From contig CALDEU010000060.1 of assembly GCA_937942395.1 (NCBI GenBank), positions 34,699 to 98,698 on the forward strand: DNA of 64,000 bases, read 5' to 3'. How positions within the stretch are numbered: the first letter of the stretch is position 1; every line of letters starts with the position of its first letter. This DNA comes from an uncultured Collinsella sp. (GTDB lineage Bacteria; Actinomycetota; Coriobacteriia; Coriobacteriales; Coriobacteriaceae). The notes under the pieces were generated by a model. The model did no database searches, was not told where the DNA came from, and worked only from the letters and a program-made list of their open reading frames with translations. A program made the position numbers and the translations under genes. This document shows positions 14,229 through 34,860 of the stretch, piece by piece.

Positions 14229-14381
14229 TCTTTGCCCCCAAAAGGGCGTGCCGTTTGGCATATGTTTGTGATGCGCTCGGACGTTTTGGCGTCCGGGCGC
14301 TATACTTGACCGAATGAATAGACGAGTTCCGGCCGAATGGCGCGGTGCGGGCTCGACTCACATCGAGCCTTGGAGGTATGT

Positions 14382-14966
14382 GTGTTTGGTATTGGAGAGG
14401 GTGAGCTGGCAATCATCGTGGTCTTCGGCTTTTTGCTGTTTGGCCCGGATAAGCTCCCGCAGATGGGCCGCACGATCGGCCGTGCCATCCGTCAGTTCCG
14501 CGAGACGCAGGAAAAGATGACGGCCGTTGTTCAGTCCGAGATCATCGATCCGGTAAGCGAAGCCGCGTCGGCCCCGGTCAAGCCCAAGAAGGCTGCCGTC
14601 GAGGATGATTCCGATGCGGACGAGGATACCGTCGAGACGGCTGCGCCCGCAAAGAAGGAGACCTTTGCCGAGCGCCGTGCCCGCCTTGCCGCCGAGAAGG
14701 CCGCGAGCGAGGGTGCCACCGAGGACGAAGGCGCTGCTGGTGAGGCCGAGGGCGCCGAGCCCGCCAAGGCCGAGCCTGCTGCTGCCGCCGTCGAGCCCGA
14801 GCCTGCTGCAGAGCCGGAGCCCGAGCCCGAGGCGGCAGAGCCCACGACGGCCGACCTCTATGCCCGTCGTCCCCGCAAGCGCAAGGCCGTCGTCGACCAG
14901 CTTGCCCGCGAGCTCGAGGCCGAGGACGATGCCGCTGCCGATGCCCCGAAGGGAGACGATGAGTAA
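14382..14966 (+). CDS. tatA: Twin-arginine translocase TatA/TatB-family protein (GTG start) with a ~110-aa Ala/Glu/Pro-rich acidic tail.
   Basis: N-terminus MFGIGEGELAIIVVFGFLLFGPDKLPQMGRTIGRAIRQFRE matches the TatA/B amphipathic-helix signature. GGAGG RBS at 14372-14376. Confidence 0.8.
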   Translation: MFGIGEGELAIIVVFGFLLFGPDKLPQMGRTIGRAIRQFRETQEKMTAVVQSEIIDPVSEAASAPVKPKKAAVEDDSDADEDTVETAAPAKKETFAERRARLAAEKAASEGATEDEGAAGEAEGAEPAKAEPAAAAVEPEPAAEPEPEPEAAEPTTADLYARRPRKRKAVVDQLARELEAEDDAAADAPKGDDE

Positions 14967-15757
14967 TGCCTATCGGACCTGCGCGTATGCCGCTCTTCGA
15001 TCACCTGGGAGAGCTCCGTCGCCGCCTGACCATCGTGGTCGTCTCGGTGTTTGCCGCAGCCATCGTGCTGTATTTCGCCACGCCCGTGGTGCTCGACATC
15101 CTGGAAGATCCCATCCGCTCCTTTGTGCCGGATGGTAAGTTCTACATCACCACCACGCTCGGCGGCTTTGGCCTGCGCTTCTCGCTGGCCATCAAGATGG
15201 CCGTGGTCATGTGCACGCCCATGATCATCTGGCAGATTCTGGCGTTTTTCCTGCCGGCGCTTCGCCCCAACGAGCGCAAGTGGGTCGTGCCCACGGTGCT
15301 CGCCTCGACGGTGCTGTTCTTCCTGGGCGCAATCTTTTGCTACTTCATCATCATCCCTGCGGGCTTTGAGTGGCTCATCGGCGAAACCTCGGCCGTCGCC
15401 ACGGCGCTGCCCGATCTGGAGAACTACGTCAACATGGAGCTGCTCTTTATGATCGGCTTTGGTGTGGCGTTTGAGCTGCCGCTCATCATCTTTTACCTGT
15501 CCGTCTTCCATATCGTGTCCTACGCGGCCTTCCGCAGCGCCTGGCGTTACGTATACGTTGGCCTGCTTGTGGGCTCGGCTGTGATTACGCCCGACGGCTC
15601 GCCCGTTACGCTGGGCCTCATGTATGGCGCCCTGCTCTCGCTCTACGAGATTTCGCTCGCCATCGCCCGTGTGGTCATTACCGCGCGCGAGGGCAAGGAG
15701 GGCTTGTTCGTGAGTCGTCTGGACCTGTTCTCGGACGATGAGGACGACGAGGAGTAA
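14966..15757 (+). CDS. tatC: Twin-arginine translocase subunit TatC.
   Basis: Six-TM protein with TatC signature (FDHLGELRRRL...). Start overlaps the tatA stop (TAATG). Confidence 0.9.
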   Translation: MPIGPARMPLFDHLGELRRRLTIVVVSVFAAAIVLYFATPVVLDILEDPIRSFVPDGKFYITTTLGGFGLRFSLAIKMAVVMCTPMIIWQILAFFLPALRPNERKWVVPTVLASTVLFFLGAIFCYFIIIPAGFEWLIGETSAVATALPDLENYVNMELLFMIGFGVAFELPLIIFYLSVFHIVSYAAFRSAWRYVYVGLLVGSAVITPDGSPVTLGLMYGALLSLYEISLAIARVVITAREGKEGLFVSRLDLFSDDEDDEE

Positions 15758-15763
15758 ATCGGT

Positions 15764-16120
15764 ATGCACGAGGTTGGCATTGTCAACGGCATACTCGATA
15801 CAGTGATTCGTGCGGCGCGTGGGGCGGGGGCCTCGCGCGCCGTTTTGGTAACGCTGCGTATCGGGGATATGACCGAGGTCGTGCGCGGGGCGCTTGACTT
15901 TGCGTGGGAGACGTTTCGTGACGAGGACCCGCTCACGCAAGGTTGTGAGCTTGCGGTAGAGGAGGTCCATCCGCAAAGCGAGTGTCTGGACTGCGGTGAG
16001 GTTTTCGATCATGATCGCTTCCACTGCCGCTGCCCCCAGTGCGGCGGCGCCAATGTGCGCCTACTGCACGGCCGCGAGCTCGACATCGCAAGTATCGAAA
16101 TCGAGACCCCCGACGATTAG
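15764..16120 (+). CDS. hypA: Hydrogenase/urease nickel-incorporation protein HypA.
   Basis: MHE N-terminus and CxxC...CxxC zinc ribbon. 118 aa. Confidence 0.9.
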   Translation: MHEVGIVNGILDTVIRAARGAGASRAVLVTLRIGDMTEVVRGALDFAWETFRDEDPLTQGCELAVEEVHPQSECLDCGEVFDHDRFHCRCPQCGGANVRLLHGRELDIASIEIETPDD

Positions 16121-16175
16121 CCCATCAGCCATCTGGGGACGGGGTATAAAGGGGCAGAAGTAAGGAGTGCCGAAT

Positions 16176-16859
16176 ATGGCCGAGAAAACGATTGATATCG
16201 CGTCGCCGATTCTGTCGCGCAACGAGCGCCTGGCAGATCAGCTGCGTGAGCGATTTAAAGAGACAAACACCTACGTGATTAACGTGCTGTCGAGCCCCGG
16301 CTCGGGCAAGACCACCACGATCCTGGGCACCAACGAGCGCCTGCGCGACAAGGCTGGCCTGCGCTGCGCCGTCATCGAGGGCGACATCGCCTCGGACGTC
16401 GACGCCATTACCATGAAGGAAGCCGGCATGCCCGCCATCCAGATCAACACGGGCGGCCTGTGCCACCTCGAGGGCAACATGATCATGGAGGCCGTCGACG
16501 CGTTCGACCAGGCTGTGGGTCTGGAAAACATTGACGTCATCTTTATCGAAAACGTGGGCAACCTGGTCTGCCCGGTCGACTTTGACCTGGGTGAGAACCT
16601 GTCCATCATGATCCTCTCTGTGCCCGAGGGCGACGACAAGCCCATCAAGTACCCGGGCATCTTCCAACACGCCGGCGCGCAGCTGCTCAACAAGGTCGAT
16701 GTGGCCCCGGCTTTCGATTTTGACATGGATAGGTATACTAAGACACTCGATGACCTCAATCCGCAGGCGCCGCGGTTTGCCGTGAGCGCGCGCAAGGGCG
16801 AGGGCATGGATGCCTGGTGCGATTGGCTCATCGGGCAGATTGAGCAAGCAAGGGCGTAA
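16176..16859 (+). CDS. hypB: Nickel-incorporation GTPase HypB.
   Basis: GSGKTT P-loop and ENVGNLVCP motif. AAGGAG RBS 8 nt upstream of ATG 16176. Confidence 0.9.
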   Translation: MAEKTIDIASPILSRNERLADQLRERFKETNTYVINVLSSPGSGKTTTILGTNERLRDKAGLRCAVIEGDIASDVDAITMKEAGMPAIQINTGGLCHLEGNMIMEAVDAFDQAVGLENIDVIFIENVGNLVCPVDFDLGENLSIMILSVPEGDDKPIKYPGIFQHAGAQLLNKVDVAPAFDFDMDRYTKTLDDLNPQAPRFAVSARKGEGMDAWCDWLIGQIEQARA

Positions 16860-28165: not shown

Positions 28166-28495
28166 GCGCTACGTTCCTGCCAGGCTGTGGTTGCGGACGG
28201 ACGAAATGTCCATCCTAGTCCAAGACAGACGCGGTCAAAGGGATCCACGTAAGCGACCGCGTGCGCGCGGCGCGATCATGGCGCGTCCTAGATGTAAGCC
28301 GCACCGTCCGTTCTACTTTCTTTGGGGCAATACCGCCTCGCGGGCGAGCGGGCCAGTCGTGAAGGTGGCTATGGCCTCCCGAGCAAACACCCCGGTGCGC
28401 AAGTGTGGGGTCAAATACCAGGTCAGCTGGTGGGAACACCCGTTATTCCGCGCAACGCACGGATTGTATACGACACAGAAGGCAGGGTAGTGGAC

Positions 28496-29506
28496 ATGGT
28501 GAGGGGCAGCTTGATGCACGCGGCTCGGTTAGGTGCTGGGACCGCGGCGGTCATTGCCGTATTGGGCTTGAGCGGATGCGCGTTCAATCCACTGTCCACG
28601 TTCACGACACCCACGATTGACCAGATCGAGCGCGAGACCGTTACCCCTACGGTGTCGGACGATGCCCTGGTCACTCCCGGCACCCTGACGGTTGCCCTCG
28701 ATACCTCCGATGCTCCGCAGGCCATGCAGGGCGCCGATGGTAACCTCACGGGCTACGCGGTCGACGCTGCCCGCGCCCTTGCAAGTCGCATGGGCCTCAA
28801 GGTTGCTTTCGTCGATGCGTCTTCTGCCGATTCCGCGCTTGGCGACAAAAAGGCCGACATCTTCATTGGCGACATCAATTCCACGGATGGTGACATCAGC
28901 ACGCTTGGTACTTGCCTGTACGACGCTGCGGCAGTGTTCGGAAAGACGAGCGATGGCGAGTCGCTGAGCGTTTCCACCGAAACGCTTAACACCGCTACCC
29001 TGGGCGTTCAGACCTCTTCGGCCTCGCAGGAAGCGCTCGCCAAGCAGAGCATCACGGCCAATCAAAAGACCTTCTCCAACATCAACGAGTGCTTTGAGGC
29101 GCTCGAGTCCGGCGAGATCGACTACGTGATTTGCGACTCCACGGCCGGCGGCTACCTTGCGCGCCTGATGAGCCAGATCTCTTACGTCGGCGCGCTCGAG
29201 ACGCCCTCGACGCTCGGCGTCGCGGGCCTCGCGGCCAACGATGAGCTATGCCGTGCCGTGAGCGATGCCCTCGACGGTATCACGGTCGATGGCACGCTCG
29301 AGGCGGTCCACTCCGTCTGGTACGGCACGATGCCCTATGACCTCACCACCAAGACGGTCTCGGGCGCCGACGTACAGTCGACCGACACCGGATCCAGTGA
29401 GTCCGCATCCTCCGATTCGAACAGCGAGGGTACAACCTCCGAGGATAAATCGTCCAGCCAGGAGGGCACTATCACCGACGACGACATTAACAAGCTCAAT
29501 AGCTAG
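28496..29506 (+). CDS. Orphan periplasmic-type solute-binding lipoprotein (SBP family 3-like) with a Ser/Thr/Asp-rich C-terminal tail.
   Basis: Signal peptide plus lipobox LSGC. SBP_bac_3-like core (TLTVALDTSDAPQ...ADIFIGDI). No adjacent permease or ATPase. Confidence 0.7.
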   Translation: MVRGSLMHAARLGAGTAAVIAVLGLSGCAFNPLSTFTTPTIDQIERETVTPTVSDDALVTPGTLTVALDTSDAPQAMQGADGNLTGYAVDAARALASRMGLKVAFVDASSADSALGDKKADIFIGDINSTDGDISTLGTCLYDAAAVFGKTSDGESLSVSTETLNTATLGVQTSSASQEALAKQSITANQKTFSNINECFEALESGEIDYVICDSTAGGYLARLMSQISYVGALETPSTLGVAGLAANDELCRAVSDALDGITVDGTLEAVHSVWYGTMPYDLTTKTVSGADVQSTDTGSSESASSDSNSEGTTSEDKSSSQEGTITDDDINKLNS

Positions 29507-29823
29507 TTATTGCTAGGGGTGGCGTCTCCTATGCGCTAGGAGAGACGCCTCTTCACGGTTTCAACACGCATTGCCGGGCTTTCCCAACAGGGGAGCCCGG
29601 CTTTTTCGTTTCCATAAAACCAGCAGGTCAAAGACATTTTTTAGGTGCAAAACCAAAGTCGCCGTTGCCCTCCCATAGCGCACTTTGCCACAGAAAAGTG
29701 CGAGACTTCGGTATGCGGTATCAAGCAATCGTTATTCGGGTCTTTGGGAATCCGCGTGATTAAATGCACGGCAATGGGTACATAGCCAGTACAGTAAGTC
29801 CCCGAGGCAGATTGGAGCCACGT

Positions 29824-30408
29824 ATGGATATCAAGGTTTCTGGACGCAAAACGACGGTAACCGATGCTCTGCGTGCGCATGTGGATGAGAAGATCGGCGA
29901 GGCGCTCAAGGTTTTCGATATCGAGCCCATGACGGTCGACGTTGTGCTTCGTTATGAGAAGAACCCCTCGAACCCCAACCCGGCAATCGTTGAGGTCACG
30001 GTTCGTGTCCGCGGTTCTGTGATTCGTGTTGCCGAGCACGGTGCAGATATGTACGCCGCCATCGATCTCTCCGCCGATAAGGTCACCCGCCAGCTGCGCA
30101 AGTTCAAGACCAAGGTCGTGGATAACCGCCAGGGTGGTGCCAGCGCCGCGGATGTTGCGCCGGTCGAGCGCGTCGAGGATCTGGCTGACCTGCTGCTGCC
30201 CGAGGAGGAGGACGACCTGCTCGTCCGCGAGAAGGTCATCGATGTCACCCCGATGACTGAGGAGCAGGCGCTGGTGCAGACCGATCTGCTGGGCCACGAC
30301 TTCTACGTGTTCGAGAACGCGACGACCGGTCTCATCAATGTGGTGTATCACCGTAAGAATGGTGGATATGGCATCATCAAGCCCCGCATCGAAACACTTG
30401 ACGAGTAA
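29824..30408 (+). CDS. hpf: Ribosome hibernation-promoting factor, long form.
   Basis: N-terminal sigma-54-modulation/RaiA domain (MDIKVSGRK...) and C-terminal dimerisation domain. Confidence 0.9.
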   Translation: MDIKVSGRKTTVTDALRAHVDEKIGEALKVFDIEPMTVDVVLRYEKNPSNPNPAIVEVTVRVRGSVIRVAEHGADMYAAIDLSADKVTRQLRKFKTKVVDNRQGGASAADVAPVERVEDLADLLLPEEEDDLLVREKVIDVTPMTEEQALVQTDLLGHDFYVFENATTGLINVVYHRKNGGYGIIKPRIETLDE

Positions 30409-30485
30409 AATACGTTAACTTGCATGAGTTAACGGCCGGCGGTCATCCCATGCGGATGGCCGCCTTTTTTACGTAAGGAGTCGCT

Positions 30486-31442
30486 TTGATGGACAAGGCT
30501 GCATCTACCGGCCATTCTGACCGCTGCCGCATCGTCGTCGATACCTGCTGCGACTTTAGCCCCGAGGTCGCCGCGAACCTCGATGTCGATATCTTGGGCT
30601 TCCCCTTTATCATCGATGGCGAGGAGCGCACGGACGATATCTGGTCGAGCATGAGCCCCAAGGAGTTCTACGACCGTATGCGCGCCGGCGCTCGCGTGTC
30701 TACCTCCGCCGTGTCGCTCGGTCGCTATATCGAGTTCTTTACCGAGTGCGCCAAAGAGGGCACGCCCACGGTCTACCTGTGCTTTACCTCGGCGCTGTCG
30801 TCGAGCTACAACTCCGCGTGCCAGGCGGCAGATGCCGTGCGCGCCGAGTATCCCAACTTTGAGCTCTATGTGGTCGACAACGCTCTACCCTGTGCGACCG
30901 GCGCACTTTTGGCGCTCGAGGCCGTGCGCCAGCGTTCGGCGGGGCTGACCGCCAAGCAACTGGTCGATTGGGCAAACGAGGCGAAGACCTACGTCCACGG
31001 CTACTTTACGCTCGAGAGCTTTGACGCGCTGGCTGCCGGCGGCCGCATTCCGCCCGCGGCGGCGCAGCTCACGGCAAAGCTCGATGTCAAGCCCGAGCTC
31101 TCCTACGACCTTGCCGGCTCGCTGTCGCTGATCGGCGTCAACCGCGGCCGCAAGAAGGCGCTCAAGTCCATCCTCAAGTCGTTCCGCGAGAACTATGTGC
31201 CCGACCGCACCATGCCCATCGCCATCATGACGGCCGATGCCGAAAAGGATGGTGACTGGCTCGAAGCCGCCATCCGCAAGGAGGAGGGTTGCGCCGACGT
31301 CACGATCATTCGCGGCTCCGTGGGTCCCACCATCGGCTCGCACGTGGGCCCCGGCATGGTGGGCTGCGCGTTTTGGGGTAAGAACCGCGCCGACAAGGCG
31401 TCGCTTTCCGACCGTATCGCCCGCCGCGTGCGCGGTCAGTAG
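30486..31442 (+). CDS. DegV-family fatty-acid-binding protein.
   Basis: 318 aa with DegV N-terminal motifs (IVVDTCCDF...). Confidence 0.85.
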   Translation: MMDKAASTGHSDRCRIVVDTCCDFSPEVAANLDVDILGFPFIIDGEERTDDIWSSMSPKEFYDRMRAGARVSTSAVSLGRYIEFFTECAKEGTPTVYLCFTSALSSSYNSACQAADAVRAEYPNFELYVVDNALPCATGALLALEAVRQRSAGLTAKQLVDWANEAKTYVHGYFTLESFDALAAGGRIPPAAAQLTAKLDVKPELSYDLAGSLSLIGVNRGRKKALKSILKSFRENYVPDRTMPIAIMTADAEKDGDWLEAAIRKEEGCADVTIIRGSVGPTIGSHVGPGMVGCAFWGKNRADKASLSDRIARRVRGQ

Positions 31443-31540
31443 GCAAGCGCTGCGTCCGTTATCGCCCTCGACTCACAGCCCAAACGCTGGCACCGAGTAT
31501 TCAACCTGGTAACAACACCCAACCCAAAAGGAAAGGTTTC

Positions 31541-32620
31541 ATGGCAAACAAGCTCTCCGTCGCATTCATTGGCACCGGAATCATGGGTGCCCCCATCGCC
31601 GGCCACATCCTGGATGCCGGCTATCCCGTCACGGTTAACAACCGCACCAAGTCCAAGGCTGCGGCGCTTATCGAGCGCGGCGCCGTCTGGGCAGATACGC
31701 CGGCCGATGCCGCGGCGAACGCCGATGTCGTCTTTACCATGGTGGGCTATCCCTCCGAGGTCGAGGAACTCTACCTGGCGGGCGACGGCCTGCTCGCGTG
31801 CACCAAGCCGGGTGCGGTCTTGATCGACCTCACCACGAGCTCGCCCGAGCTTGCCCGTGACATTGCCGAGGCCGCCCAGGTTTCTGGTCGCATGGCGTTT
31901 GACTGCCCCGTCACCGGCGGCGAGTCGGGCGCTATCGCCGGTACGCTCACGGCTATCGTGGGCGCTACCGAGAACGACATCGCGCCGGTCCGCGACATCC
32001 TTGCCACCTTTGCGGCCAACATCTGCTGCTTCGACGGCGCCGGCAAGGGTCAGGCTGCCAAGCTCGCCAACCAGGTGTCGCTGGGCGCCTGCATGGTCGG
32101 CATGGCAGACGCCATGGCGTTTGCCGAGCTGAGCGGCCTTGACCTGGAGAAGACCCGTCAGATGATTCTGGGCGGTACCGGCAAGTCCGGTGCCATGGAG
32201 AGCCTGGCGCCCAAGGCGCTCGACGGCGACTACAAGCCCGGCTTTATGGTCGAGCACTTCATTAAGGACCTGCGCTTGGCGCTCGCCTACGCCGATGACC
32301 GCGAGCTCGCGCTGCCCGGCGCCGACGTCGCCTTTACGCTTTACGACATGCTCGATGCCATCGGTGGCGCCAAGCTGGGCACCCAGGCCGTCACGGTCCT
32401 CTATAAGGAGGAGGCCGATGCCATCGCCACCGGTCTGGACTGGTCGCAGTATCGTCCCGAGGAGCACGGTGCTCACGAGGAAGGCTGCGGTTGCGGCGAG
32501 CATGGCGACGACCACGAGTGCGGTTGTGGACACCACCATGGCGAGGACCACGAGTGCTGCGGCGGTCACGGTCATGACGACGGCCACGAGTGCTGCTGCG
32601 GCCACCATCACGGGGAGTAG
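31541..32620 (+). CDS. NAD(P)-binding beta-hydroxyacid dehydrogenase (HIBADH / tartronate-semialdehyde reductase family) fused to a ~55-aa His/Cys-rich C-terminal tail.
   Basis: Rossmann motif AFIGTGIMG and catalytic-Lys region of the 6PGDH-NAD-binding family. Tail: HECGCGHHHGEDHECCGGHGHDDGHECCCGHHHGE. Confidence 0.8.
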   Translation: MANKLSVAFIGTGIMGAPIAGHILDAGYPVTVNNRTKSKAAALIERGAVWADTPADAAANADVVFTMVGYPSEVEELYLAGDGLLACTKPGAVLIDLTTSSPELARDIAEAAQVSGRMAFDCPVTGGESGAIAGTLTAIVGATENDIAPVRDILATFAANICCFDGAGKGQAAKLANQVSLGACMVGMADAMAFAELSGLDLEKTRQMILGGTGKSGAMESLAPKALDGDYKPGFMVEHFIKDLRLALAYADDRELALPGADVAFTLYDMLDAIGGAKLGTQAVTVLYKEEADAIATGLDWSQYRPEEHGAHEEGCGCGEHGDDHECGCGHHHGEDHECCGGHGHDDGHECCCGHHHGE

Positions 32621-32625
32621 CGCCC

Positions 32626-33054
32626 ATGAGCTGGACGTTCGTGGTGCTTGCGCTGGCGCTCTTTCTCTTCGCGATCTACATCGGCTTTTTGTGCGGCCAG
32701 TGGGCGTGCGAAAAGCGCGTCATCACCAAGCGCGACTACTGGATTGCCAACTTTGCGGGAGCTGCGGCAGTCGTCCTGCTGACCTGGGTGTTCTCGCTGT
32801 TCCCGCTGGTGCAGTTTGCGCCGATCGGCTGGCTCGGCGGCTTTATCGCCGGCCTTAAGATGAGCTTTGGCGAGTCCGTCGGTCCGTGGCGCAAGCACGA
32901 CGAGGTCTTTAACGTCAACAAGGCACACCGCGCCGCCGCCGACGCGGGCGATGCCGAGGAACGCCGCCGTGCGCGTCGTAATGGCGCTGCCGACCGACAG
33001 CTCATCTCGGTCACCGATGACAGCAAGGGTGCTGGCAAGCACGCTAAGAAATAG
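32626..33054 (+). CDS. Small membrane protein (2 TM) with a basic C-terminal region.
   Basis: Hydrophobic helices and coding-like codon usage. Overlaps the stop of the upstream gene. Confidence 0.5.
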   Translation: MSWTFVVLALALFLFAIYIGFLCGQWACEKRVITKRDYWIANFAGAAAVVLLTWVFSLFPLVQFAPIGWLGGFIAGLKMSFGESVGPWRKHDEVFNVNKAHRAAADAGDAEERRRARRNGAADRQLISVTDDSKGAGKHAKK

Positions 33055-33069
33055 TAAAAAGAGGTAACT

Positions 33070-33768
33070 ATGGCAGAAAACAAAGACGAACAGCTCACCG
33101 ACGAGGAGCTGGCACAGCTTCAGCTGGCAGAGGAGAACGAGAACGCCGTCGACCGCCTGGTTCAGGAGCTCGGCTGCCCCACGCGCCGCATCCGCCAGTT
33201 TGCCGCCCGCGTGCTGCACCTGCTCGCCGAGCGCGATCCGCAGCGCGTCGTACCCTGCGTCCCCGCGCTGATCGAGGCGCTCGACCGCCCCGAGGCTCAG
33301 ACCCGCTGGGAGGCCCTCGATGCCCTGACGGCGCTTGCCACCACCTGTCCCGAGCAGCTGGGCGATGCCTTTGAAGGCGCCGAGACCGCGCTGTTCGACG
33401 AGATTTCCTCCACGCTGCGCTATGCCGCCTTCCGCCTGCTGTGCGTGTGGGGCGCCACGAGTGTCGAGCGTTCGCGCGAGGCTTGGCCCATCCTGGACGA
33501 GGCCATTCAGTGCTACCACGGCGACCTCGAGTATCGCGACATGCTCGGTTGCCTGTACGAGTTTGGCCAGGGCGAGATCGACGCCGAGGTCGCCGAGAAG
33601 CTCGCGCTGCGCCTTAAGTTCGATGCCGAGAACGGCAAGGGCAGCTATCTCAAAGCCCGTTCGAGCGAGATTTGCGAAATGCTTGTTAAACGCTTTGATC
33701 TTGATCTCTCCAAAAAGAAGAAGCGTGCTAGCGTTAAAAAATCTGACGACGCCGAAAACGAGGAGTAA
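33070..33768 (+). CDS. HEAT/PBS-lyase-like repeat protein. Hypothetical.
   Basis: Repeated helical-hairpin units typical of HEAT repeats (RIRQFAARVLHLLAERDPQRVVPCVPALIEAL). Confidence 0.55.
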   Translation: MAENKDEQLTDEELAQLQLAEENENAVDRLVQELGCPTRRIRQFAARVLHLLAERDPQRVVPCVPALIEALDRPEAQTRWEALDALTALATTCPEQLGDAFEGAETALFDEISSTLRYAAFRLLCVWGATSVERSREAWPILDEAIQCYHGDLEYRDMLGCLYEFGQGEIDAEVAEKLALRLKFDAENGKGSYLKARSSEICEMLVKRFDLDLSKKKKRASVKKSDDAENEE

Positions 33769-33774
33769 CAGATT

Positions 33775-34860
33775 ATGGCGCACGATGTAGTCCTGATTCC
33801 CGGTGACGGTATCGGTCCCGAGATTACGCAGGCCATGCGCCGCGTGGTCGAGGCCACCGGTGTCCAGATCAATTGGAATGTCCAGGAGGCCGGTGCCGGC
33901 GTCATGGACGAGTTTGGCACGCCACTGCCCCAGCACGTGCTCGATGCGGTCGCCGAGACCAAGGTTGCCATCAAGGGTCCCATCACCACGCCGGTCGGCA
34001 CGGGTTTCCGCAGCGTTAACGTCGCCCTGCGTAAGCACTTCGACCTGTACGCCTGCGTGCGCCCCTGCCTGTCGCAGCCGGGCGACGGCTCGCGTTTCCG
34101 CGACGTCGACCTGGTCATCGTGCGCGAGAATACCGAGGACCTCTACGCCGGCATCGAGTTCGATGAGGGGGCTGCCGAGGTCGAGGAGCTCTCGCAGCTT
34201 GTCGAGCGGTCGGGTCAGAAGACCTTCGCCGCCGATTCCGCCATCTCGATCAAGCCGATCTCCATCGCCAAGAGCCGCCGTATTGTGGAGTACGCCTTTG
34301 AGTACGCCCGCCGTTGCGGCCGCAAAAAGGTGACGGCCGTACACAAGGCAAACATCATGAAAGCGACTGACGGCCTGTTCCTGCGCGTTGCGCGCGAGGT
34401 GGCCGCCAACTATCCCGATATCGAGTTCAACGACAAGATCGTCGACGCCACCTGCATGGGCCTGGTCCAAAACCCCAACGACTTCGATGTCTTGGTGCTG
34501 CCCAACCTGTACGGCGACATCGTGAGCGACCTGTGCGCCGGCCTGGTGGGTGGCTTAGGGATGGCCCCCGGCTCCAACATCGGTGCCGATTGCGCCATCT
34601 TCGAGGCAACGCACGGCTCAGCGCCCGATATCGCTGGCCAGGATATCGCCAACCCCACGGCCGAGATTCTCTCTGCTGCGATGATGCTCGATCACCTGGG
34701 CGAGAACGACGCTGCCAATCGCATTCGCGCCGCCGTATCTGCCACGCTCGACGAGGGCGAGCAGGTTACCGGTGACGTGCGCCGTGCCCAGACCGGCTCC
34801 GTCGAGGGCGCCGTGGGCACGCAGGCCTTTGCCGATGCCGTTATCGCGCACCTGGCCTAA
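33775..34860 (+). CDS. Isocitrate/isopropylmalate dehydrogenase-family NAD-dependent decarboxylating dehydrogenase.
   Basis: 361 aa. N-terminal [11 protein letters not shown] and the family's metal-binding Asp motifs. Confidence 0.85.

Follow-up and report, generated by a model that had tools for sequence, protein, structure and literature searches.

A beta-hydroxyacid dehydrogenase of Collinsella with a conserved His/Cys-rich tail, a candidate metal buffer in gut Coriobacteriales

Results

Gene architecture and composition of the tail

We analysed a 64,000-nucleotide stretch of DNA from an uncultured Collinsella sp. (hereafter the window) and focused on a gene at positions 31541..32620 of its forward strand (ATG start, stop codon included), which encodes a 359-amino-acid (aa) beta-hydroxyacid dehydrogenase extended by a linker and a His/Cys-rich C-terminal tail. 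The ATG at 31541 is preceded, 5-15 nt upstream, by a Shine-Dalgarno-like sequence, AAAAGGAAAGG (31526..31536, forward strand), identified by direct reading. According to Pfam, the catalytic core spans aa 7-288 (31559..32404, forward strand) and consists of a Rossmann NAD(P)-binding domain and an all-alpha domain, with Lys174 located in GAGKGQAAKLANQ. It is followed on the same strand by a conserved linker at aa 289-304, KEEADAIATGLDWSQY (32405..32452, with GLDWS at 32432-32446), which we used as the marker of the subfamily, and by the tail at aa 305-359, RPEEHGAHEEGCGCGEHGDDHECGCGHHHGEDHECCGGHGHDDGHECCCGHHHGE (32453..32617), which was delimited by composition and predicted disorder. Tandem Repeats Finder (TRF) detected a 36-bp (12-codon) tandem repeat inside the tail-coding DNA (32501..32607, forward strand; 3.0 copies, 77% matches). 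The third-position GC content of the gene was 0.82, similar to the adjoining genes (60% GC in the window), and the long open reading frames in the other frames and on the opposite strand are by-products of the GC content.

The tail is built almost exclusively from five residues. An earlier note on this DNA had described the last ~55 residues as almost all H, C, G, D and E, and this was accurate for 52 out of the 55 (14 His, 9 Cys, 14 Gly, 10 Glu and 5 Asp). His and Cys together make up 42% of the tail, and the 288-aa core holds 2 His and 5 Cys; the enrichment in the tail corresponds to a binomial P of 8e-20 against a background of 3.3%, the His+Cys frequency of the 30 other genes of the window. 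Four H-E-C-(G/C)-C-G units were recognised in the tail, and a six-frame scan of the window revealed no comparable His/Cys-rich stretch in any other real gene. At E <= 0.01, no Pfam family matched aa 290-359, including the bacterial metallothionein and CobW_C (PF07683) families, and the protein as a whole gave no match to an FKBP or Cpn10 profile. Similarly, a search of the PDB with the sequence of linker plus tail returned no match at E <= 10. A homologue search with the tail only (54 aa) gave two fragments, probably due to low-complexity words not being indexed.

An AlphaFold2 model was built with a 70-sequence alignment (mean predicted local distance difference test score, pLDDT, 80.3). The core reached pLDDT values of 65-98 per 10-residue block, the lowest (65-77) being found at residues 211-240. 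The linker scored ~72-79 and was predicted to form two short helices. In residues 310-359 the pLDDT was ~30, and on this ground the tail is predicted to have no fixed structure in the apo state. No contact between tail and core was predicted in the model. Finally, tail-length alleles with total lengths of 347, 359 and 383 aa (95-98% identity) were found to differ by entire 12- or 24-residue blocks, which is consistent with the 36-bp repeat unit generating the length variants.

The dehydrogenase core

The two Pfam domains of the core were NAD_binding_2 (PF03446; aa 7-162, 157 bits), in which the GxGxMG motif is present as GTGIMGAPIA, and NAD_binding_11 (PF14833; aa 168-285, 95.9 bits), whose helices were modelled with high pLDDT. 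The closest solved relative was the NADP-dependent L-serine 3-dehydrogenase of Pyrobaculum calidifontis (3W6U; E = 8.7e-59 over residues 4-284). Lys174 was aligned with the catalytic K170 of 3W6U, the position mutated in the K170M entry 3W6Z. The catalytic-lysine motif G-x-G-x-x-x-K-L-x-N-Q was found, the substrate loop D-x-P-V-[ST]-G-G is present as DCPVTGG, and both were invariant in 70 orthologues. When the AlphaFold2 model was compared with the PDB in Foldseek, the top 50 matches were all enzymes of the 3-hydroxyisobutyrate dehydrogenase (HIBADH) family, with a best E of 1.4e-25 (5XVH) and TM-scores of up to 0.85. Because of the Pfam domains, the alignment of Lys174 and these exclusively HIBADH-family structural matches, the core is a complete, ordinary beta-hydroxyacid dehydrogenase. 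Together with the NCBIfam matches given below, these results bear out the first assessment of the core as an ordinary NAD(P) enzyme of the HIBADH type.

Among the NCBIfam models, the best scores for the core were those of tartronate-semialdehyde reductase and 3-hydroxyisobutyrate dehydrogenase. The equivalogs scored were 2-hydroxy-3-oxopropionate reductase (TIGR01505 and NF008592) and 3-hydroxyisobutyrate dehydrogenase (TIGR01692), and the scores stayed under their cut-offs (199.9 vs 340.75, 188.9 vs 397 and 174.5 vs 291.6); for this reason, we gave no specific substrate to the enzyme. A substrate of the L-serine, glycerate or 3-hydroxy-acid type is plausible. The dehydrogenase is probably NADP-linked, since an NRT motif after the Rossmann strand is common to our protein and 3W6U. 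The P. calidifontis enzyme (3W6U, 3WS7, 5XVH) thus resembles the Collinsella core in catalytic Lys, NRT motif and fold, though the identity in the Foldseek alignment is only 39-40%. Public records label the protein merely as 'NAD(P)-dependent oxidoreductase' or '3-hydroxyisobutyrate dehydrogenase'.

Conservation of the tail within Collinsella

We found the gene at 98-99% identity in 80 species-representative genomes of the Collinsella aerofaciens group, to which the window itself belongs. This sample comes from a full-length-alignment search that returned only C. aerofaciens-group genomes, and the taxonomic breadth was taken from the protein searches described below. In all of the 79 genomes that were readable from the start codon, the product had exactly 359 aa. 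The Cys residues of the tail showed no substitution across the 79 genomes, the His residues changed only in four singletons, and the remaining changes were mostly D/E and G/S/A exchanges. We used as a proxy of pN/pS the number of distinct variant codons per non-synonymous versus per synonymous site; it was lowest in the linker (0.03) and higher in the core (0.05) and the tail (0.11). The tail is therefore somewhat less constrained than the core, yet clearly under purifying selection.

The earlier note had considered that the tail might be a frameshift or an assembly artefact, and read-through or a recently decayed gene end would be further explanations of this kind. Metagenome protein sets do hold odd versions of the protein: frame-shifted ones of 438-439 aa, truncated ones of 289-291 aa and chimeras with CobW_C. 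However, the same 359-aa frame was intact in 79/79 genomes, the indels came in 12- or 24-codon blocks, and the in-frame protein clusters (18,899 and 2,088 member sequences) were far larger than those of the odd forms (1-30). The 438-439-aa proteins were +1-frame read-through products with 1-6 members each. We also examined the 289-291-aa proteins (98% identity) as candidate natural tail-less alleles and rejected them, because codon 290 is followed directly by an internal part of the HPF gene. The tail-less protein P0024 (291 aa; L088, 1501-2376) is such a misjoin; it lies on a hybrid-assembly contig in which the adjoining DegV and HPF genes are fragmented. The proteins that combine the dehydrogenase with CobW_C were likewise rejected as real fusions, given that the contig has 1.5x coverage and runs on into a COG0523/FeoA locus. 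An artefactual origin of the tail is thus, for all practical purposes, excluded.

Matches to CobW_C were confined to two chimeric metagenome proteins, P0015 (L084, 305-1516) and P0058, in which the His/Cys-rich region forms the junction between the dehydrogenase and this domain. The contig of P0015 continues into a cobW/DUF1980_C gene and feoA, and is probably an assembly chimera. In that case, a COG0523-type gene in these bacteria would carry similar His/Cys-coding DNA.

Distribution across Coriobacteriales

To examine the taxonomic breadth, we searched 1.84 billion cluster representatives exhaustively with HMMER. Ordinary HIBADH relatives ended at about 285-300 aa, and our protein belonged to a distinct subfamily in which LLYxxEExxxxxGLDWS follows directly after the core and precedes a C-terminal extension. 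The linker residues G298, L299, D300 and W301 were invariant in 70 orthologues, and the GLDWS motif was still present at 31-35% identity. We inspected the C-termini of matches that exceeded 320 aa or whose last 80 residues included 8 or more His+Cys, and among these neither the linker nor a His/Cys-rich tail was found outside the GLDWS subfamily; the other matches had lengths of only about 285-320 aa.

Tails with at least 75% H/C/G/D/E were present in 110 out of 153 relatives with the linker motif. These 110 tails were 37-89 aa long (median 58) and had a median of 14 His and 9 Cys, with a pooled composition of 26% H, 21% G, 15% E, 15% C and 11% D. The recurring unit among relatives was H-E-C-x-C-G-H-x-H-G-[DE]; the composition of the tail was kept across them while its length and sequence turned over. 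A profile search seeded with distant members recovered another 118 relatives, all 118 with a His/Cys-rich tail. The named ones were Thermophilibacter mediterraneus, Ca. Olsenella pullicola and Atopobiaceae bacterium SGI.236, all of them Atopobiaceae. One member with 38% identity was annotated as a Coriobacteriales bacterium.

A few lineages depart from this pattern. In the syntenic orthologues P0269 (L086, 8001-9167) and P0283 (L087, 8001-9131) the GLDWS linker was kept and the tail was Ala/Pro/Thr/Ser- or Asp-rich, with hardly any His or Cys. In L087, larC (Ni_insertion) and larB (AIRC) lie 3-5 kb downstream of the His/Cys-poor orthologue. Three distant members of the subfamily with 35-41% identity, P0149 (L082, 6001-7077), P0153 and P0167, have a conserved motif, (M)(G/S)(S/A)FFSxN, at their C-terminus, behind a His/Cys or His6 stretch. 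We considered GC bias as the source of the tail composition and rejected it, because His/Cys tails occurred in genomes of both 49% and 69% GC and orthologues lacking them in genomes of both 51% and 69% GC.

Based on these sequence comparisons, the His/Cys tail is the prevailing, though not universal, state in the order. The tail had initially been regarded as not usual for the dehydrogenase family. This is correct for HIBADH enzymes at large but not for the present orthologue, in which the tail is the rule in Coriobacteriaceae and Atopobiaceae and therefore represents a lineage-wide trait instead of a peculiarity of one genome. The search for the tail in homologues, which the earlier note had suggested, thus recovered it in almost all syntenic orthologues of the two families, with few lineages being without it.

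Genomic neighbourhood

The gene is part of a conserved block, (phosphoribosyltransferase)-SBP-HPF-DegV-dehydrogenase-(145-aa membrane protein)-NYN, which we also found in five other lineages with genomic GC contents from 49% to 69%. Given this conserved housekeeping block, the proteins compared here are vertically inherited orthologues. The upstream neighbour is a gene for a DegV/FakB-type fatty-acid-binding protein (30486..31442, forward strand; Pfam DegV 187.9 bits, TIGR00762 192.6 bits), and a DegV gene also precedes the orthologue in L081, L082, L085, L086 and L087. Downstream, a gene for a small membrane protein of 142 aa (32626..33054, forward strand) starts 5 nt after the dehydrogenase stop codon and is probably co-transcribed with the dehydrogenase gene. 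It had no Pfam or NCBIfam match; a 145-aa homologue follows immediately downstream of the orthologue in L081 (7094-7531; 37% identity, E = 8e-24), and a 145-aa gene takes the same place in L086 (9286-9723).

Two further genes follow on the forward strand. The first of them (33070-33768) had been taken for a HEAT-repeat protein, but the HEAT match was only sub-threshold (22.8 bits vs a cut-off of 27.7), there was no NCBIfam match, and in other lineages the position is occupied by a NYN-domain protein. The small membrane protein and the IDH-family gene (33775-34860; 358.6 bits), which had been named along with it, were both recovered. Strong intrinsic-terminator-like hairpins were found after the SBP gene (29573-29601) and after HPF (30438-30464); the stretch from degV (30486) through the IDH gene (which ends at 34860) contained none. 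From this absence and the 5-nt gap, degV, the dehydrogenase, the membrane protein, the HEAT-like gene and the IDH gene likely form one transcription unit.

The only Rfam matches were one tRNA and a raiA RNA. The latter is full-length (28175-28435, forward strand; RF03072, 145.7 bits vs a gathering score of 101.3) and lies just upstream of the gene for an SBP_bac_3-type lipoprotein; the HPF (raiA-type) gene comes next, at 29764-30408. As the open reading frame of the SBP protein (28322-29506) overlaps the raiA RNA, its start is probably located further downstream.

hypA and hypB

A hypA-hypB pair had been noted at 15 kb from the dehydrogenase gene, and it is indeed present about 14.7 kb upstream. 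The hypA gene (15764-16120, forward strand) scored 87.6 bits with TIGR00100 (cut-off 88.1) and hypB (16167-16859, forward strand) scored 240.6 bits with TIGR00073. Both are in one tight row with tatA (209 aa, unusually long) and tatC (14337-16859, forward strand). HypB matched only positions 75-286 of the E. coli-type model, and we found in it neither a His-rich segment nor an N-terminal high-affinity CxxCGC segment, which leaves room for a separate source of nickel. We looked for a functional coupling of the dehydrogenase to hypA-hypB and found no support for it beyond their co-occurrence in the same 64-kb window; nor does anything in the locus tie the gene to a nickel or cobalt transporter. 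Moreover, the use of nickel does not require the tail, since a His/Cys-poor orthologue lies 3 kb from larC/larB.

Discussion

Interpretation and alternatives

The reading that we prefer, at a probability of about 0.6, is that the protein is an active cytoplasmic dehydrogenase whose disordered His/Cys tail also binds metal as a buffer or reservoir. Domain architecture, catalytic motifs, tail disorder, conservation, purifying selection and repeat-length variation are direct results of the analysis. The protein would comprise a folded core, a short conserved linker and an intrinsically disordered tail of ~55 residues, in which Cys-Cys/CxC thiolates and His imidazoles would hold several metal ions per chain, either divalent or soft, in the same mode as the tails of SlyD and of Helicobacter pylori HspA and Hpn. 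A stable, vertically inherited housekeeping enzyme would in this way act as the carrier of a metal buffer or reservoir in Coriobacteriales, whose capacity may be tuned through gain and loss of 12-codon repeat units. Following the precedents of SlyD, HspA and Hpn, we put Ni(II) and Zn(II) first as candidate metals; Co, Cu(I), Cd or Bi are possible too, the last three suited by the many Cys-Cys and CxC pairs of the tail. By analogy with the 48-residue tail of SlyD, roughly 5-8 metal ions would be expected per chain.

Several observations weigh against this reading. Three syntenic lineages with the linker have an extension almost free of His and Cys: the 195-member P0126 cluster has one rich in Ala/Pro/Thr/Ser, and those of P0127 and P0152 are rich in Asp. 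The His/Cys content is therefore dispensable in those lineages, and the more basic function of the acidic, disordered extension may be a different one. The conserved neighbours (SBP, HPF, DegV and NYN) are housekeeping genes; no metal transporter or regulator adjoins the gene, and Rfam detected no metal riboswitch (NiCo or other) around it. We infer the binding of metal by the tail, the identity of the metal and the storage or buffering role, and no paper on the protein or its orthologues was found in the literature library searched.

These observations bear differently on the alternatives. If the extension were an acidic disordered tail unrelated to metals, acting in solubility, as an entropic bristle or in association with a partner or the membrane through the GLDWS linker, His and Cys would be secondary. 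All tails are indeed acidic and disordered, also those without His or Cys, the linker is kept even where the His/Cys content is not, and in several lineages the next gene downstream, conserved and tightly coupled, encodes a small membrane protein. However, Cys and His are under purifying selection within Collinsella, and they are kept across two families despite complete sequence turnover, at low as well as high GC, which is hard to explain without selection for metal-ligand residues; we thus regard a purely non-metal tail as improbable. A role as a regulatory switch, in which metal occupancy or the redox state of the Cys thiols alters oligomerisation or activity, seems to us comparably unlikely. 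It would agree with the conservation of the tethering linker, the highest within the extension (pN/pS 0.03, GLDW invariant), and with the moderate structure predicted for it, and there is a precedent in SlyD, whose peptidyl-prolyl isomerase (PPIase) activity is reversibly inhibited by nickel (PMC7055735). On the other hand, a specific allosteric element is not expected to vary as freely as this tail does in length (37-89 aa) and sequence, with some lineages lacking His/Cys, and the model predicts no contact between tail and core.

A dedicated nickel metallochaperone, whose tail gathers Ni(II) and passes it to HypA/HypB, LarC or other nickel enzymes in place of SlyD, HspA or a His-rich HypB segment, is a somewhat better candidate, although still a doubtful one. 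The presence of hypA-hypB 14.7 kb upstream, a HypB without the N-terminal high-affinity or His-rich region, the closest similarity of the tail being to that of SlyD, which supplies nickel to HypB, and the Cys-Cys pairs, known as nickel anchors in Hpn and HspA, would all fit such a role. Nevertheless, in six lineages the gene sits in a housekeeping block, with no hyp, hyd or nik gene beside it, the search for a NiCo riboswitch was negative, and a nickel-using lineage with larC/larB manages without a His/Cys tail. With the same caution we treat the more far-reaching version of the buffer reading, which we hold to be tentative at best: the dehydrogenase and its tail might constitute the principal cytosolic reservoir and donor of nickel (or of nickel and zinc) in Coriobacteriales, an equivalent of SlyD or HspA that feeds HypA/HypB and other nickel enzymes and whose metal occupancy feeds back on the NADPH-linked activity.

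Significance

The tail is conserved under selection in Coriobacteriaceae and Atopobiaceae, a range that takes in Collinsella, Olsenella and Thermophilibacter as well as numerous uncultured species of the gut. Binding of metal in vivo would make it a major, readily testable part of metal homeostasis in prevalent human gut Actinobacteria, with a bearing on the competition for nickel and zinc in the gut, on H2 metabolism and on how metallodrugs such as bismuth are taken up; the tail would then also offer a natural example of a metal-binding capacity tuned by repeat number. Should the protein turn out to be the principal nickel reservoir, these very abundant commensals of the human gut would possess a hitherto unrecognised class of metallochaperone, with a metabolic enzyme as its scaffold. 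If it binds no metal, the conserved GLDWS linker and the acidic tail would need another explanation. As a practical point, the protein is expected to co-purify on resins for immobilised metal affinity chromatography (IMAC). The finding is not a surprise in principle, and with the function proposed here it provides a solid, easily testable lead on metal homeostasis in Collinsella and its relatives.

Comparison with known metal-binding tails

Disordered tails rich in His and Cys are a known bacterial device for the storage and trafficking of nickel and zinc, and most of the known examples belong to dedicated chaperones (HypB, UreE, SlyD, CooJ) or to proteins specific to Helicobacter. The closest parallel was SlyD of E. 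coli K-12, whose tail, translated from slyD, is HGHVHGAHDHHHDHDHDGCCGGHGHDHGHEHGGEGCCGGKGNGGCGCH. The exact 8-mer CCGGHGHD is common to the Collinsella and E. coli tails, and their compositions are correlated with r = 0.91; for SlyD, this substantiates the likeness to Ni/Zn storage or delivery tails that the earlier note had proposed. In SlyD the tail has no fixed structure, contains much His, Cys, Asp and Glu and varies between species, and it binds up to 7 Ni(II) at sub-micromolar affinity as well as other metals (PMC7055735). In both proteins a folded housekeeping enzyme is followed by an unstructured C-terminal H/C/G/D/E tail of ~50 residues. The carriers differ, being an FKBP-type PPIase with an insert-in-flap (IF) chaperone domain in E. 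coli and a HIBADH-family dehydrogenase here. In addition, the Collinsella tail has more Cys (9 vs 6) and more Glu, and the interaction with HypB described for SlyD is not known for the dehydrogenase.

As an abundant protein that serves as a metal reservoir, HspA of H. pylori is the closest functional model. Its His/Cys extension stores nickel for hydrogenase, and deletion of the extension is viable but lowers the cellular nickel content and hydrogenase maturation (PMC3856676). The reference list of the same paper names the Cys-Cys motif as a metal anchor essential to both Hpn and HspA (PMC3856676). In contrast to the Collinsella protein, the carrier in HspA is Cpn10 (GroES), and its gene is regulated by NikR, no regulator being known for the Collinsella gene. 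The HspA extension, of about 27 aa, is also shorter than the dehydrogenase tail. Furthermore, it is confined to Helicobacter, whereas the dehydrogenase tail spans two families of Coriobacteriales.

Hpn/Hpn-2, His-rich HypB, UreE and CooJ share a very high His content with our tail, and Hpn also has Cys-Cys; their roles are in nickel storage or detoxification (PMC3856676). However, these are small stand-alone proteins or dedicated nickel chaperones that are not fused to a metabolic dehydrogenase. In particular, Hpn and Hpn-2 are small (7-8 kDa) stand-alone His-rich proteins restricted to Helicobacter (PMC3856676), while the Collinsella segment comes from an actinobacterium and terminates an enzyme of 359 aa. 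Judged by profile searches, the dehydrogenase is not a member of the SlyD, HspA, CobW_C or metallothionein families, though it does bear an appendage of the kind found in SlyD and HspA. His/Cys-rich metal tails as such are well known; what is new is a carrier of the HIBADH family and the breadth of the tail across two families of gut Actinobacteria.

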